A program made the position numbers. Shown here piece after piece: positions 1 to 6,000 of a stretch of DNA of 7,514 nucleotides. This stretch comes from Candidatus Micrarchaeota archaeon. Lineage in GTDB: Archaea > Micrarchaeota > Micrarchaeia > Norongarragalinales > UBA8480. How positions within the stretch are numbered: the first letter of the stretch is position 1; every line of letters begins with the position of its first letter. Location of the stretch: contig JAZDHP010000007.1 in the NCBI GenBank assembly GCA_043805855.1, forward strand, positions 1-7,514, in the 5' to 3' direction.

Positions 1-3000
1 AGTAGAGAACGCTTTAGACACTTTAAAAAACCGCGGGGAAATTTTACAAACAACTGCACAAGATAGACTAAATCGATTACCGCAATTTAGAAAAGCAACT
101 AGAGAAGATATTGAACGGCATTTACACTTAATTCACAAAGTAATGCGAAACGGCCACATATACCTGCGTTTTAACTGGCAGAAATTTATTACTCCAAGTG
201 AAGCTTACGCAGATGGGCTTGATGGACTGGAATACGCAATTAAAACACACGACCCTACAAAGGGAAAACTAGAACCCCGCATTAAAGCATGGGTAGCACA
301 AAAAATAGGCCGCGTTGCAAGAGCAGAACAAAGGAGAATACAAAAAACACGTTCAATAGATACAATTATTACAAAAAGACAAGAACGGCGACTTTCACTT
401 TGCAGCGAGCCACGTGAACCGAGAATAACCGAAGATCAAATTGAAAGTTTAATGCAACACCCAAAAATAAAAGCAATGCATTTAGCAATACTGGCACTGC
501 ATGGCATTTACGGCCACAGTTATCCCGAAATAGCGCGGCATTTTGGTGCAAAGCCACAAGCAGTTCAAAAACACTATTCAACAACGATAAGGACATTTGC
601 TAAGATAAACAGAGAAAGAGCAGTTGGCGAACGTTAAAAGGCAAAATAATATAAGATTAAACAAAGGCATATTGTTTAGCACATGACAAAGCACAACTTG
701 AAAGAGTTTTTCGCCAACGTACACTACGCGAACCTACAAGCGTTAATGCAACATGCTGAACAGCTATCTGCGCAAATTAAGGCAACTCAAAAGCCAAGAG
801 GACGAGTGAAACAATCACTAAGCGCGTTTAATTTAAAAGTGAAAGCACTTGCACCGCAATTTCTTGACGGACAGTACAATACTATGGGAATAGCCCGCGC
901 AATTATAGCAGAATCAAAAAAGAAAACTACGCCTTTTAAGAAAATGCATAGACAAGTAGCAAGTGCATTACAGAAGCTAAAAGCTAAAGGCGAAATTCAA
1001 GCGACAACTTCTCAAGATAGACGGACCCGAGTGCCGCAATTAAGAGAAGTAACAAGCGCAGATATGGAACGACATTTAAATTTAATCGACGCAGTAATGC
1101 GCGGCCGACATAAGTACCTTCGACCAGACTGGTGGCAATACTTATCAGAAGAAGATGCCTACACAACGGCACTTGATGGACTATTATATGGCCTTAAAAC
1201 TTTTGACCCAACAAAAGGAGAAAAAAGAGACGTTAGTGTAAAATTAAACGATCACTGTAGAGCATGGATTGCACAAAGGATAGACTACGCTGCTAGAAAA
1301 GAACAAAGGCAAGTAAACCGGCTAGAGTCAATGGACGATATTGAAGAAACAAGAAAAGAACACCGATTGTTGAAACCAGGCGAACAAAAGGAGCGAATAA
1401 CTAGAGCCCAACTTCAGCTTTTAATGCGACACCCGAAAATGAAGGCAACACAATTAACTATACTGGTGCTTCACGGCGTTTACGGTCACAGCCAAAAAGA
1501 AATTGCAAGACACTTCGGCGTAAAGCCACAAGCAATTCAAAATCATTACTACCGCGCGCGAGATGCACTTGTTGAAATGAACCGAGAAAAATGACGAATA
1601 ATACGAACACTAGATAAAAGGAAAAAACGCACACGTGAAATAGAAAAATGCCACAAAATCCAATTGTAAATTACTTTAAAGGAAAATGTTACACTAGCGT
1701 AGAGGATGTTTTGGAACACACTGAAGAAATTTCTAAAAACATGAAACCAACACCAGGACCGGCTAAACTAGCGTTAACTGACTTTGAAAAAAGAGTAGCA
1801 GAAGTAGCGCCAAGATATTTAAACGGCCAGTACAACCCGAAAGAAATCGCAGTTAGAGTATTGCGCTTAAGCCAAAGAAGTAGAATAGCGAGACAGAAAA
1901 TTCCATTGCCATCTGCTATTAGAAGAATTATTCCCAAAGTGAAAAAAGCACTTAAAAAGTTAAAGAAACGCAGCAGCATTCCAATAACAACCTCGCACGA
2001 CCGACCGAAACGGTTACCAAAATTAAGAGAAGCGACCGGCGAATTAATAGAAGAGCACCGGCACTTGATTAGAAAAGTAATGGGCTGTGGCCACAAGTAC
2101 CTACCTAAAAGTTTACTATATTACTTGCAGCGCGACGATGCAAAAGCTGTAGGCATGGACGGTCTAGTACGCGCAATTGAAACTTGGGACGAAACTAAAG
2201 GTAAACTAAACCCATGGGCACGTGCATGGATTGCGCAGGCAATTGCAAGAACAGCAGTAAAAAGTAAAAAAAACCAAATGCAGTCGCTAGACGCGCCTTT
2301 AGGAGAAGATGAAGATGCAACGCTCTATGATAGAAAAGGCACACCTGCAAGTAGCCTTGAAGACCGTGAAGAAGTTGAAGATGGTTTGAGTAAATTAATG
2401 AAAAGCAGGAGGACTAAACCACATCACTTGGCGCTATACGCGTTGCACGAAATTTACCAGCGCAATTATAGCGAAATAGGCCGACATTTTAACTGCAAAG
2501 GCATAAACATAAAACGTCACCTAACAACCGCGCGGGCAATAATTGAAAAAGTAAAACAACGCGAACAAGCGGAACAAGAAAGAAGATCCCTCCGGTTAAA
2601 GGGTTGAAAAGTTATTTTAAAGCACAACTAACTACTAACTATATGCAACCGATGCCAATTGCAAATTACTTCAAGGGAATTAGATACACTAATTTTGAAG
2701 CAGTCATGAGGCACGCTGAACAGATATCACAAGAAATAAGAGAAACCCGACAACCTAGAAAAATATCACGTAACCCGCTTACGCCGAGCCAAATTCAAGT
2801 AAAAAGACTTGCATTAACAAATTTAGACGGACAATATCGCGTTAGAAAAATCGCGGCCGCATTATTAAAAAAAGAAAAAAAACGAATTACGCCTCGCAAA
2901 ATAGATGAACGGGCAAGGCAATTAAGTCATATGTTGAAAAGATTAAAAAACCGCGGGGAAATTCCCAATACAGACGTTAGAGGTAGAAAACGGCAAAAAG

Positions 3001-6000
3001 CGTTACGCGCGGCAACCAACGAAGAAATTGAAAAACACCGAGAATTGGTGAAAAAAGTTATCCTCTACGGCCACACCTACTGCCATCGTAGTTTTTGGCC
3101 AAACTACTTACAACGCGAAGACGCAGAAGCAGCTGGTTTAACTGGATTAGTAAGAGCAATTGAAACGCATAAACCAAGAAAAGGAAACTTTAAAACATGG
3201 GCTAAAATGTGGATCGCACAGGCGATTACGCGAGCAGCACGGCGAGAAAAACAAAAACACGTTGCAACTTCAATGGACAAGCCAATTGGTAGAGACAAAA
3301 AAATAACGCTTCACGATGTTAAAGGTGAACCTGCGCTTAACCCAGAAGCGTTTGACCCAACTCAGATAGAAGAAGACATAAATATTTTATTAAAAAAACG
3401 AGCAAAGCCGCAAGATATAATGACTTACTTCTTGCACAAGGGGTACAAACATTCAACAAGTGAACTAAGCCGACACTTTGGAGCAACTCGAACAAGCGCT
3501 CACCGTAACTTCAAAAGAGCACAAACAATAGTGCAAAGATTAAGGCAAATAAATCAAGAAAGAGAAGAACGCGAAACCACGTTGCAAAGAACTGGAACTT
3601 ACTGAACTAAAACTCGCTTAAACTAGTTTGCTGCCTTGTATTTGGCTATCTTTTTCTCATCGCCTGCGCTTAACAGTTGCGGTTTCTCTTGGCAGCTCTA
3701 GCCCATGTCTACTCGCGACAGTCGCATATAGCGTTTCTAAATTTCTAGTATTTCTAAGGCTAGTTTGAGTAGAAGGCGCTTCAGATACGAAATATCTGTT
3801 ATCCGGATACCCGATTGCAATTGAACGAATTGGACTTATCATAACCAGCGCATAATCTGGATCGCGCTTTAACTGCGCCATTACACTATTGCGATCACCG
3901 CTTGAAAAGCGGTCAAACCACTCTTCGCCAGTTCCACGGCAATGCGTGTGCACTTTTAAAAGTTTATAACCGGCACTAGGAGACTGCGCATGTACATGTT
4001 CAAGTAAATGGTTCGCTGCAGCGAGGCGCATTGGATCTGCTCGAACGTGCGTTGCGCTTCCACGGCCTAGTAAGTGAAAAGAATGCGCTAACCAACGAGT
4101 TTTAGCTCCAGTTCTTTGAGGTGTACAGAGAAAAACCCCGTTCGTCTCTTGCTCCAGCTGAGCTAAAGTTTTAAGTCGCTTATGCAAATGTTGTGGAATC
4201 ACTATTTCAACTTGAGGCACTTTCTCACCCTTGAATAAAATTACAGTCTTAACTTTATTAAACTGTCAAAATTCACCTAGACTCTTTTGACTTGCGCTAA
4301 CTAGCGAGGGTTCCTTTTTGCGTTTCCCAAGCTTAAGCTGTTCCGGTAAGAGTAACTCGCCGTACTCTCCATCATAGCCGGGTTTGATTTTAATCGCGTT
4401 CTCGCGGTTTAACATAATTACACGCGCCATCTCGAGGCCGACTACTTCACGCAACTCACTCTCCGGCACGTCGAACACAATTCTAAACTCGTTGACAAAC
4501 TTCGCGATTAACTTGTTGAACATTTCCTGCACTTTCACAGCGTAAAGATTAGAGCCGAGAACAGACGCGATTAACTCAGCAAGCGGAAGTACAGTACGAA
4601 AAGGAATGGCGCCCTTGCGGCGGAACCCCTCGGGCCGGTCAGCTAGTTCAATAACGCGCTTTTCAACGCCAATTGTCATTTGCTTGCCACACCTGGGGCA
4701 AATCTCTTTCAACTTCTTCGCTTCAGCTGAAGAACAAGAGAAATTACAAAGGCGGTGGCCACTCCAGTGATACTTGCCATAACTAGGCGAAGTTTCAACA
4801 GTGAACAAGAATTTACTCGCATCGTTGGAGCGAATTGCATTAAATATTTTTTCAAACGAATTACAATCGTCGCTAAACGCGTTGCACTCGCGGCCAATAC
4901 GCCACGGGTGCGGCGAGTGCGGGTCAGAACCAGAAACAATTGCAAACTGGTCAAGCGAAGACACTTGCCAATTCATAGCTGGATCGCTACTCATTCCAGT
5001 TTCAATTCCAAGCACTTTTCCAGATTTATCTTCATACGCTTCTTGAACAGAATTATAACCACTTTTATCGCCGAGTACACCAAACCAAGGCGTCCAACAA
5101 TTATGTACAGTTGCAAATTCAGTTAAATAGGAATTGTCTTCATCTACTTCTAAATTATAGACTTTTCCAGCATACTTACGCGTTTCAATTTTGCGTACCG
5201 GGAGATAAACATAAGCATCGTCTATCCAACCATGCCGTACGTTAGTCTTAAAATTGAATTTACTAAATTCTAATTCAGACAATAAATTAAATTTATCCTC
5301 AAAAAAAGTAAGCGTATTGAAAACGAAATTATCACAAGTAGCGACAATTTGCCTTTTTCCAATAAAATGCTTGCCTCTTATGGCATGCGCTAAAGCTGAA
5401 TCTACTCGAATTCCAGGAACTATTCCTAATCGCAAACAAATGATTTTAATCTGATTAGCAAAAATCCGGGAGGACGTGCTGCCTTTATCTCCTCGCCACC
5501 AACCTCGAAGTATTTGTACTTGTTTATCTACCGGTAAATTTAGCATAAAAACTGGCAAACATTTTGAGAACGCCCGCTTCACTCCAGATTTATCATAAAA
5601 TAAGCTTTGAAATAGCGTCATAATTGATTTAGAATAGAAAACTAAATCACCTGCTGATTTCCCTTGCATAGGTTTTACATTAAAGATCTGTTGCATCAAC
5701 GTTTTTACGTCATTCATATACCCCGTTTCAGTAGGTGAAAAAGTAAATGAAATAGCGTCTCTATTATTACAATAGCCCTCTGCTAGATAATATCCTGCTA
5801 AGCGGCAAAAATCAGCATCTATCTTTAAAGAAAATGACGTGTTTTCGAGTTTAATATCGAGAATTTGAACATCTTGAGAGTTATTATTAAACCGCGGGTA
5901 AAGCAAAACATCTCCGATTTCAACAGAAGATAGTGGCGCCCAAGTTGGTTTGTACTGTTGAAAATATCCAGTGGTGCAACCTTTTAGGTGAGAAGGAGTT

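Follow-up and report, generated by a model that had tools for sequence, protein, structure and literature searches.

In textbooks, sigma factors mark transcription as bacterial, while archaea use TBP, TFB and TFE. What role do tandem genes of sigma-70 type then play in the genome of a Micrarchaeota species, a tiny groundwater archaeon? The window, i.e., the whole stretch of DNA that we analysed, comprises 7,514 nt of contig C7 and carries four such genes. The survey's finding for this locus was an eleven-member family (eight members whole, four in tandem) placed on the clamp of the archaeal RNA polymerase. The genes are located as follows.

2..637, + strand: paralog 1, 3' part (211 codons, open at its 5' end); Sigma70_r4_2 E 7e-5, family profile E 6.5e-102
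683..1594, + strand: paralog 2, whole, 303 aa; Sigma70_r4_2 E 2e-10 (40.6 bits, cut-off 25.7), TIGR02937 E 9.7e-8, family profile E 3e-145
1648..2607, + strand: paralog 3, whole, 319 aa; Sigma70_r2 E 1.4e-4, TIGR02937 E 5.4e-10, phrog_351 sigma factor E 6.7e-11
2643..3605, + strand: paralog 4, 320 aa from the ATG at 2643; Sigma70_r2 E 1e-8 (35.3 bits, cut-off 24)
3660-4075 of contig C49: paralog 1, first 92 codons; joined with the C7 part, the gene has 303 codons

The tandem arrangement is confirmed: all four ORFs within 2-3605 lie on the same strand and encode sigma-70 domains 2 and 4, and the Pfam matches reported for Sigma70_r2 and Sigma70_r4_2 reappear above their cut-offs (paralogs 4 and 2, respectively). 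In the whole genome, Sigma70_r2 exceeds its cut-off at two loci. Paralogs 2-4 show 35-52% identity to paralog 1, and paralogs 3 and 4 are sisters in the tree (support 97). The database record of paralog 4 has 320 aa, as expected from the ATG at 2643; an alternative TTG start at 2604 would give 333 aa and a 4-nt overlap with paralog 3.

A profile of the four paralogs, run against a six-frame translation of the 1.03-Mb genome, recovers the eleven ORFs (four on C7, two each on C31 and C29, one each on C49, C65 and C15). Exact 141-nt end overlaps connect the contigs C49, C7 and C19. Since C49 at its 3' end and C7 at its 5' end have these 141 nt in common and both cut ORFs are in the same frame, the two ORFs are one gene. 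The total is thus ten genes rather than eleven, of which nine (not eight) are whole and one is an N-terminal fragment at the start of C29. About 1 in 100 genes of this archaeon is sigma-derived.

From the N terminus, the family build starts with a conserved helix and one to four winged-helix-like modules; sigma domain 2 follows, then a finger-like linker and lastly sigma domain 4. Longer relatives carry the winged-helix-like module in 2-4 copies. For paralog 4, whose AF2 model has a mean pLDDT of 82, the parts are as follows.

2643..2987, + strand: family-specific N-terminal module (helix, residues 18-35; winged-helix-like unit, residues 46-115; pLDDT about 85-92 in these blocks)
3003..3266, + strand: sigma domain 2, residues 121-208, regions 2.1-2.4 (superposition on 1sig; Sigma70_r2)
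3267..3356, + strand: linker, residues 209-238, with a sigma-finger-like (region 3.2) motif (aligns to the SigA stretch directly before region 4)
3357..3593, + strand: sigma domain 4, residues 239-317, with helix-turn-helix (second stretch of the PDB profile alignment; consensus motif)

The sigma-70 ancestry of the family is well supported by both sequence and structure. Residues 125-202 of the model superpose on residues 376-446 of E. coli sigma70 (1sig) with Z 10.8 and an rmsd of 1.7 Å over 70 residues (31% identity), and a Foldseek search with the model yields 46 matches at E<=0.001; among the matches listed, all are bacterial sigma factors. The profile search against the PDB reproduced the best match given by the survey (8h3v SigA, E 4.5e-16) as well as its alignment of RpoD 327-499 with profile positions 84-248, while our count of matches is 69 PDB sequences at E<=0.001 instead of 90. 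The alignment consists of two overlapping stretches, i.e., region 2, followed by regions 3.2 and 4 (profile 204-300 vs. SigA 279-381). That is, of the regions 1.2, 2, 3 and 4 assigned earlier, region 2, region 3.2 and region 4 stand, whereas neither Sigma70_r3 (domain 3) nor Sigma70_r1_2 matches any of 42 family members at E<=0.01. Sigma domain 3 is absent, such that domain 2 runs into the finger-like linker and then domain 4. At the same threshold, Sigma70_r2 is found in 14/42 members, Sigma70_r4 in 10/42 and Sigma70_r4_2 in 7/42. TIGR02937 is matched by 28/42 (E<=0.001), with the window paralogs scoring 20.6, 31.8, 39.1 and 41.4 bits, below the curated cut-off of 42.9. Sigma70_ECF matches a single member (1/42) and ECF subfamily models match weakly; the two-domain build is shared with ECF factors.

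The linker has a length of only about 30 residues, with pLDDT below 50 at 209-213 and 226-236, and follows the family consensus SLDxPxxxDExRTLHD; the helix-turn-helix of domain 4 reads GHxxxEIAxHFGVxxQA. The N-terminal helix plus winged-helix-like module appears to be previously undescribed, and the winged-helix assignment is a lead from the predicted model: the best structural match reaches Z 6.2 and is weak (rmsd 2.0-2.8 Å over 51-62 residues), 95 chains have Z>=5 and none Z>=8, and Foldseek finds no match for the module at E<=0.001. Nearly all of the 50 matches listed are winged-helix DNA-binding domains, with weak resemblance to those of Lrp/AsnC, MarR, Fur and MCM (Z 5.3-6.2).

The survey had left open whether the residues for -10 recognition are conserved. 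We counted residues over the 42 members, using an alignment anchored by the PDB profile alignment and the 1sig superposition. The domain 2 scaffold and the helix-turn-helix are retained, while the tryptophan pair that melts the -10 element is lost: the corresponding SigA positions hold W in 0/42 and 6/42 members. The -12-reading positions hold Q in 3/42 and T in 3/42, and at the Y430 position we find H (19), Y (14), W (2) and F (2). At several positions of the pocket that holds the flipped -11 base in bacteria, the chemistry is kept (aromatic or His 37/42, K/R 30/42, D/N 32/42). Among the positions counted, the strongly conserved ones cluster most in region 2.2, the helix by which bacterial sigma binds the core (many of the best-kept columns lie here: A in 39, L in 37, E in 33, G in 31 and G in 30 of 42). 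The position of E. coli E407 is conserved as hydrophobic (I/A/V in 33/42), and the N409 position is R/K in 23/42. The polar residues Q406 and N409, which contact beta-prime in bacteria, are replaced in the family.

To assess the range of the family, we searched 1.84 billion representatives with the profile and obtained 58 proteins at E<=1e-30, a number that rises to 431 at E<=1e-10. The earlier figure of only three close relatives stems from a word-indexed search, where our sole find was the query protein itself. The order of domain 2, finger-like linker and domain 4 is kept in the 58 representatives. Four relatives have names; all are Micrarchaeota MAG proteins, three of them already sigma factors by NCBI name. 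Within the phylum, Sigma70_r2 exceeds the Pfam cut-off in 46/401 genomes (controls: 10/10 bacteria and 0/4 archaea), and at least five other genomes have 2-3 such matches clustered within 5 kb. None of the 400 other phylum genomes searched yielded the full-length family, not even a 91%-complete one from the same genus. This agrees with the patchy distribution reported before; the family is therefore not basal machinery. It is old, since the tree intermingles its paralogs with relatives from other MAGs.

The transcription apparatus of the host is archaeal, as the survey had stated: a single Rpb1-type locus encodes a fused A'/A'' subunit (Rpo1, on contig C51), accompanied by TFB, single-lobe TBP and TFE, with one locus each for TFB and TBP. 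With TFB and TBP restricted to one locus each, there is scope for a further layer of promoter selection. The sigma-like loci neighbour housekeeping genes (MetRS, thermosome, deoxyhypusine synthase, IMPDH, TRM5), no viral hallmark gene was found near any copy in the genome, and their GC content equals that of the genome, which argues for host genes rather than cargo.

Given these observations, we tentatively favour, at a little short of an even chance, the reading that the paralogs are domesticated, sequence-specific DNA-binding transcription regulators of their archaeal host. The ancestor of the family would be a sigma-70-type factor without domain 3, from a bacterium or a phage. The helix-turn-helix of domain 4 and the added winged-helix module would bind promoter-proximal DNA, while domain 2 may serve as a structural or a protein/nucleic-acid contact domain. 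Ten diverged paralogs would thereby provide ten specificities alongside one TFB and one TBP gene, and probably open no DNA in the sigma-70 manner, acting independently of a sigma-type holoenzyme. Three observations argue against a sigma-type mechanism, i.e., the loss of the tryptophan pair and -12 readers, the replaced polar beta-prime contacts, and the added winged-helix-like module, as present in ordinary archaeal regulators. Several points count against the regulator reading. A role restricted to the helix-turn-helix predicts decay of domain 2, while region 2.2 is well kept. The finger-like motif persists in the linker consensus, and the sigma finger linker of bacteria is not known to work outside the polymerase. 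Furthermore, the -11 pocket chemistry is partly kept, and a Z of about 6 is weak for a winged-helix assignment.

The main alternative, possible if rather unlikely, is the reading of the survey. Here, domain 2 would bind the fused Rpo1 at its clamp coiled-coil, which is homologous to the beta-prime clamp helices, making the paralogs either alternative promoter-specificity or initiation factors or blockers. In the former case, finger-like linker and domain 4 would take the roles of the TFB reader/linker and core; in the latter, the paralogs would compete with TFE, Spt4/5 and the TFB linker. Such docking would fit the conserved region 2.2, the domain order kept throughout the 58 representatives of a deeply diverged family, and the -11 pocket chemistry, much of which is retained. 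The hydrophobic E407 and basic N409 positions have the expected look of a retargeted interface, and across 21 Micrarchaeota/DPANN sequences there is almost no variation in its presumed target, the coiled-coil segment of Rpo1 (about 196-245). However, the tryptophan pair and the -12 readers are gone and the Q406 and N409 polar residues are not retained. The genome also already holds a complete TBP/TFB/TFE set, which occupies the same clamp surface in archaeal initiation complexes, and the patchy distribution speaks against docking as well.

A viral or mobile-element origin with a role in genetic conflict appears improbable. In this case, the paralogs would be viral transcription factors that became domesticated, or decoys, and would reprogram or block transcription during infection; this would account for rapid divergence, tandem copies and patchy occurrence. 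phrog_351 ('RNA polymerase sigma factor') matches 7/8 paralogs down to E 5e-17, and the nearest Atlas feature clusters (language-model based, score 0.95) are phage (Uroviricota) sigma-like and Bacillota SigH/SigK-like, which is a lead only; both kinds of match concern generic sigma families and are silent on the direction of transfer. The first structural row of the Atlas is a SigH-family cluster. PIN/MazE toxin-antitoxin pairs adjoin or stand near three of the loci, and a passage of a 2025 study (PMC12647753) describes two rpoS-like genes located on viral genomes of DPANN, of which one is a prophage. On the other hand, tblastn gave 0 matches in 50,697 phage records, PADLOC found no defence families beyond a weak MzaA-like sigma similarity, and neighbourhood and composition are those of the host chromosome.

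Still a little less probable is the boldest form of the docking proposal, namely that the paralogs are working sigma-like subunits of the archaeal RNA polymerase, with domain 2 on the Rpo1 clamp coiled-coil, the linker in the cleft replacing the TFB reader/linker, and domain 4 plus winged helix reading promoter DNA. If true, this would mean ten promoter classes in an archaeal order with single-lobe TBP, i.e., a bacterial/archaeal initiation hybrid.

Finally, mis-binned bacterial contigs or decaying pseudogenes, which the Sigma70_r2 pattern in the control genomes and the short contigs C7, C15, C49 and C65 (2-7.5 kb) might suggest, are highly improbable and ruled out in practice by linkage to archaeal marker genes, as the survey had also concluded with respect to binning: C29 (58 kb), which also encodes TBP and TFE, and C31 (34 kb), with thermosome and deoxyhypusine synthase, both carry copies, the contamination estimate of the MAG is 1.2%, GC is uniform, all frames are open, the end overlaps join C49, C7 and C19, and the four named relatives are Micrarchaeota proteins.

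With about 1/100 genes of a 1-Mb archaeal genome sigma-derived and sigma domain 2 in 46/401 genomes of the phylum, either outcome has consequences. If the paralogs contact the archaeal polymerase, the clamp coiled-coil would be a dock for initiation factors that is exchangeable across domains of life; if they do not, a polymerase subunit would have turned into a free-standing regulator.

Among known systems, archaeal TFB and TFE contact both promoter DNA and, on the archaeal polymerase, the clamp region, with the TFE winged helix on the clamp coiled-coil. They are functional analogues for which we found no sequence relationship to the family, and both are present in normal form in the genome. 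The phage sigma factors of PHROG 351 are small domain 2 plus domain 4 proteins, as here, while the phage context is absent here. Other sigma-like ORFs of the phylum have a more canonical build (of 12 scanned, five with Sigma70_r3 and two with r1_2), and none carries the N-terminal module of this family. In both sequence and structure, domain 2 matches the primary sigma factors SigA/RpoD best (8h3v, 1sig), and the FST(Y/H)A motif of the family and its finger-like motif are of the group 1-3 sigma type, as in SigA/RpoD. In contrast to these, the family has no region 1.1, no region 1.2 match and no domain 3, and does not keep the -10 melting and -12 reading residues. Closest in build are SigH-type (PDB 3mzy) and SigK/SigE-type sporulation sigmas without domain 3, which likewise combine domain 2, a short linker and domain 4. 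3mzy aligns as one stretch (profile 157-303 vs. chain 4-160), and SigK models match 12/42 members, although NCBIfam scores stay below curated cut-offs (e.g., SigK 35 bits vs. 252). The family differs from them by a host without bacterial polymerase, the extra N-terminal helix and winged-helix-like module(s), and the lost tryptophan pair. Regarding novelty, the case is weaker than the survey made it: bacterial-type sigma genes beside TBP, TFB and TFE are already described for DPANN, with stress on Woesearchaeota, in the passage on fam00359 in Castelle et al. 2021 (PMC8204110), which states that no anti-sigma factor and no mechanism is known, and, as noted above, relatives carry sigma names at NCBI. 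To that passage, our analysis adds a Micrarchaeota lineage, its domain build, the ten-copy expansion and the residue-level loss of the melting residues.

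The genome under study comprises 1.03 Mb in 67 contigs, of which the window covers contig C7 (7514 bases) completely. Four sigma-like paralogs stand there in tandem, and the remainder of the contig holds three minus-strand genes:

2-637, plus strand: paralog 1, 5' end open
683-1594, plus strand: paralog 2
1648-2607, plus strand: paralog 3
2604 or 2643 to 3605, plus strand: paralog 4
3657-4220, minus strand: 187-aa ORF, convergent with the sigma-like array
4266-6710, minus strand: TIGR00375-family protein with an intein, 814 aa, E 1.8e-63 over two stretches
C7, minus strand: MarC/NAAT transporter gene

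Within the window, identity to paralog 1 amounts to 35-52%. Pfam's Sigma70_r2 is found in paralog 3 (E 1.4e-4) and paralog 4 (E 1e-8, 35.3 bits vs. a cut-off of 24), and Sigma70_r4_2 in paralog 1 (E 7e-5) and paralog 2 (E 2e-10, 40.6 bits vs. a cut-off of 25.7). The NCBIfam superfamily model TIGR02937 scores the window paralogs at 20.6-41.4 bits, i.e., slightly below its cut-off of 42.9. As for the minus-strand genes, the 187-aa ORF has no Pfam, PHROG or PADLOC match; an HxH...SxxD pattern, spotted by eye, recalls a putative JAMM/MPN metalloprotease. The intein of the TIGR00375-type protein spans about residues 131-538 and shows Hint/Intein_splicing, LAGLIDADG_3 and intein C-terminal signatures.

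When searched with a profile of the four window paralogs, the six-frame ORFs of the genome yielded 11 matches (four on C7, two each on C31 and C29, one each on C49, C65 and C15). This reproduces the ORF count of the survey, which had reported eleven paralogs, but not its number of genes. C49 ends with exactly the 141 bases with which C7 begins, and both cut ORFs run through this stretch in the same frame. That is, the two ORFs are halves of a single 303-codon gene that was split by the assembler. Since they form one gene, the family has ten genes, namely nine whole ones and an N-terminal fragment located at the beginning of C29, and the C7 array comprises four complete genes once the C49 half is joined. 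The break within paralog 1 was probably caused by the resemblance among the paralogs. Besides C49/C7, for which 141 nt were measured, exact end overlaps were observed for C7/C19, C65/C62, C31/C20 and C31/C8; the assembly therefore breaks at k-mer-length repeats, and several contigs can be ordered. As candidates for a motif common to the ten genes, their 5' regions, inspected by eye and without statistics, show only AT-rich TATA-like boxes.

To which part of a sigma factor the family corresponds is seen from a comparison of an eight-member profile with the PDB. It matches 69 distinct sequences at E<=0.001, and the 60 listed are sigma factors, with SigA (8h3v, E 4.5e-16) as the best. The alignment consists of two overlapping stretches, one through region 2 and one from the SigA segment just before region 4. 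Because the part in between is skipped, the family is without domain 3; SigH (3mzy), a sigma factor that also lacks this domain, aligns with the profile as a single piece. Within the 42-member family alignment, Pfam matches at E<=0.01 are found for r2 in 14, for r4 in 10 and for r4_2 in 7 members, while Sigma70_r3 and Sigma70_r1_2 are each found in 0/42. The survey's alignment from region 1.2 through region 4 thus stands for region 2 and for regions 3.2 and 4, but not for region 1.2 and domain 3. A linker motif with the consensus SLDxPxxxDExRTLHD corresponds in the alignment to the sigma finger of SigA, and the helix-turn-helix (HTH) of domain 4 is preserved; both statements are read from consensus lines.

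The AlphaFold2 model of paralog 4 (mean pLDDT 82) consists of three well-predicted blocks and a flexible linker. Foldseek finds 46 PDB matches for it at E<=0.001, and those listed are all sigma factors. Residues 125-202 of the model fit E. coli sigma70 376-446 (1sig) at Z 10.8, with an rmsd of 1.7 A and 31% identity, and they fit 3ugo, i.e., domain 2 with -10 single-stranded DNA, at Z 9.7. About the first 115 residues are family-specific and form a conserved helix followed by a further unit (pLDDT 81 when modelled alone). Foldseek of this N-terminal module against the PDB gave nothing at E<=0.001. Compared with winged-helix domains of MCM, Lrp/AsnC, MarR and Fur, the unit reaches Z 5.3-6.2, a range that possibly reflects a common arrangement; judged by its model, it is likely a winged helix.

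We then counted the residues of domain 2 in the 42-member alignment, with positions mapped via the SigA alignment and the 1sig superposition. For E. coli numbering we take 404, 408, 411, 412 and 417 to be the region 2.2 scaffold, 406/407/409 the polar core contacts, 419/420/423/430 the -11 pocket, 433/434 the tryptophan pair and 437/440 the -12 readers. The scaffold is well kept (A404 in 39/42, G408 in 31/42, G411 in 30/42, L412 in 37/42, E417 in 33/42), as is I435 (36/42). Among the core contacts, position 406 is variable among the 42, 407 is I, A or V in 33 and 409 is R or K in 23. The -10 recognition residues give a divided picture. The -11 pocket retains its residue types, i.e., an aromatic residue or His at 419 (33/42), D or N at 420 (32/42), K or R at 423 (30/42) and H, Y, W or F at 430 (37/42). 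In contrast, tryptophan occurs at 433 in 0/42 and at 434 in 6/42, three of them C7 copies, and the -12 readers Q437 and T440 are present in 3/42 each. In sum, selection keeps the fold and one conserved face of domain 2, the HTH is intact, and the parts by which sigma-70 opens the -10 element have been lost. By domains 2 and 4 the family belongs to the sigma-70 superfamily; it falls short of the curated whole-protein cut-off, of domain 3 and of the melting residues.

The range of the family is wider than the three close relatives counted by the survey. This low number is explained by the word-indexed search, which in our hands retrieved only the query. An exhaustive profile search over 1.84 billion representatives instead yields 58 proteins at E<=1e-30; relaxing the threshold to E<=1e-10 raises the number to 431, and the 24,191 proteins reached at E<=0.001 represent general sigma background. 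Judged by length and rank, nine of the 58 appear to be the genome's own, leaving about 48 from elsewhere, most of which match over the full profile including the N-terminal module. Some relatives of 370-499 aa carry this module two to four times. For the longer members P0012, P0013, P0018, P0024, P0028 and P0030 (370-487 aa) we observed a repeated N-terminal helix plus winged-helix-like module; by eye, they also carry another HTH of the domain 4 type close to the N-terminus, and Pfam sees their C-terminal r2 and r4 only. Ten relatives were checked: each of the four that are named is a MAG protein of 'Candidatus Micrarchaeota archaeon', and NCBI calls three of them sigma factors.

Among 401 genomes sampled from the phylum, this genome alone gave full-length family members; the search missed them even in a congeneric genome of 91% completeness. 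Sigma70_r2 exceeds the Pfam cut-off in 46/401 genomes and occurs in 36/155 genera at E<=0.001, and at least five other genomes have two or three such matches within 5 kb. Twelve of these other ORFs were scanned; since r3 is present in 5/12 and r1.2 in 2/12 (r2 in 11/12), the phylum also has sigma genes of a more canonical build. No RNA run is listed as containing the sequence; one groundwater DNA run contains 0.06 of its words. In a quick tree, 25/39 inner branches are unresolved, so neither a donor nor a duplication order can be named. The tree mixes the genome's paralogs with those of other MAGs (6 changes vs. 6.6 for shuffled labels; the sole sister pair is paralogs 3 and 4), i.e., the paralogy is old and not a recent burst.

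The host's own transcription machinery is archaeal throughout, as the survey had stated. A single Rpb1-type locus encodes a 1132-aa product, which the archaeal A' model scores at 1113 bits and which carries a fused A'' at its end. Genes for archaeal B'', B' and H adjoin this locus, and the genome further encodes TFB, TFE and a TBP of one repeat. The nearest relatives of this Rpo1 carry Micrarchaeota names. Among the best 79 relatives listed, many of them so named, most have about 1110-1170 aa and some are longer due to inteins, which makes the A'/A'' fusion a lineage trait. The loci outside the window are:

C51, L008 (a stretch of that contig):3975-7373, minus strand: fused A'/A'' RNA polymerase gene, 1132 aa
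C29, L002 (a stretch of that contig):4734-5024, minus strand: TBP gene, single repeat, about 96 aa
L002:1151-1815 and L001:3724-4343, 5554-5955, 14954-15298, plus strand: PIN-domain toxins and small antitoxin genes (MazE-type or unassigned)

The PIN toxin and antitoxin genes adjoin or neighbour three sigma-like loci. On C29, whose start also bears the family fragment, about 2 kb separate the TBP gene from the whole sigma-like gene. We dropped the idea that the single-lobe TBP is connected with the sigma-like genes because short open frames (about 100-140 aa) with one TBP repeat are the norm in the order (55/61 genomes), most sampled genomes of which lack the family.

As to function, which we infer, our best reading, held tentatively, is that the proteins descend from sigma factors and were domesticated as DNA-binding regulators. 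With two predicted DNA-binding modules, without melting residues, and present only patchily beside a complete basal machinery, they would fit such an accessory family, whose members may supply promoter choice where there is a single TFB and a single TBP. The main rival is the survey's proposal that domain 2 docks on the clamp coiled-coil of Rpo1. It is difficult to see why domain 2 and the finger-like linker stay conserved unless the proteins have some role connected with the polymerase, and the coiled-coil is nearly invariant. A complex prediction without controls, combining Rpo1 1-400 (21 rows) with domain 2 112-215 (42 rows), gave ipSAE 0.00 and 0.00 and speaks neither for nor against docking; we consider this putative contact somewhat unlikely.

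Descent from viruses or mobile elements, together with a function in conflict, seems less probable still. It would agree with phage sigma-like clusters among the Atlas neighbours, with phrog_351 matches and with rpoS-like genes on DPANN viruses, of which a passage in PMC12647753 tells. The context in this genome is, however, unsupportive: the neighbourhoods inspected hold no viral hallmark genes near family copies, and none of 50,697 phage records was matched when paralog 4 was searched by tblastn. PADLOC gives only two weak MzaA-like sigma matches and indicates no defence system. Pattern searches with the single protein P0010 against viral contigs and with a C31 paralog against genome contigs matched patterns but confirmed no relative. 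Finally, mis-binned or otherwise spurious sigma genes are barely conceivable: in agreement with the survey, mis-binning is excluded for practical purposes by copies that share the 58-kb C29 with TBP and TFE or sit on the 34-kb C31 among MetRS, ornithine decarboxylase, agmatinase, thermosome, deoxyhypusine synthase, IMPDH and KaiC, by a contamination of 1.2% (completeness 92.1%) and by a GC content that is uniform across the family's contigs and the genome.

The presence of sigma genes in DPANN has already been reported, and the clamp-docking mechanism is unsupported so far. A passage in Castelle et al. 2021 (PMC8204110) describes sigma-70 genes, mostly in Woesearchaeota, and gives there neither anti-sigma factors nor a mechanism. 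In the literature on sigma factors in archaea, DPANN and Micrarchaeota, covered largely at abstract level, we found no description of this build or of a function. The family is real and odd, and the question of what a sigma factor does in an archaeon becomes testable with defined proteins. The kinds closest to it are bacterial sigma factors without domain 3, i.e., the SigH and SigK types, and small phage sigma factors.
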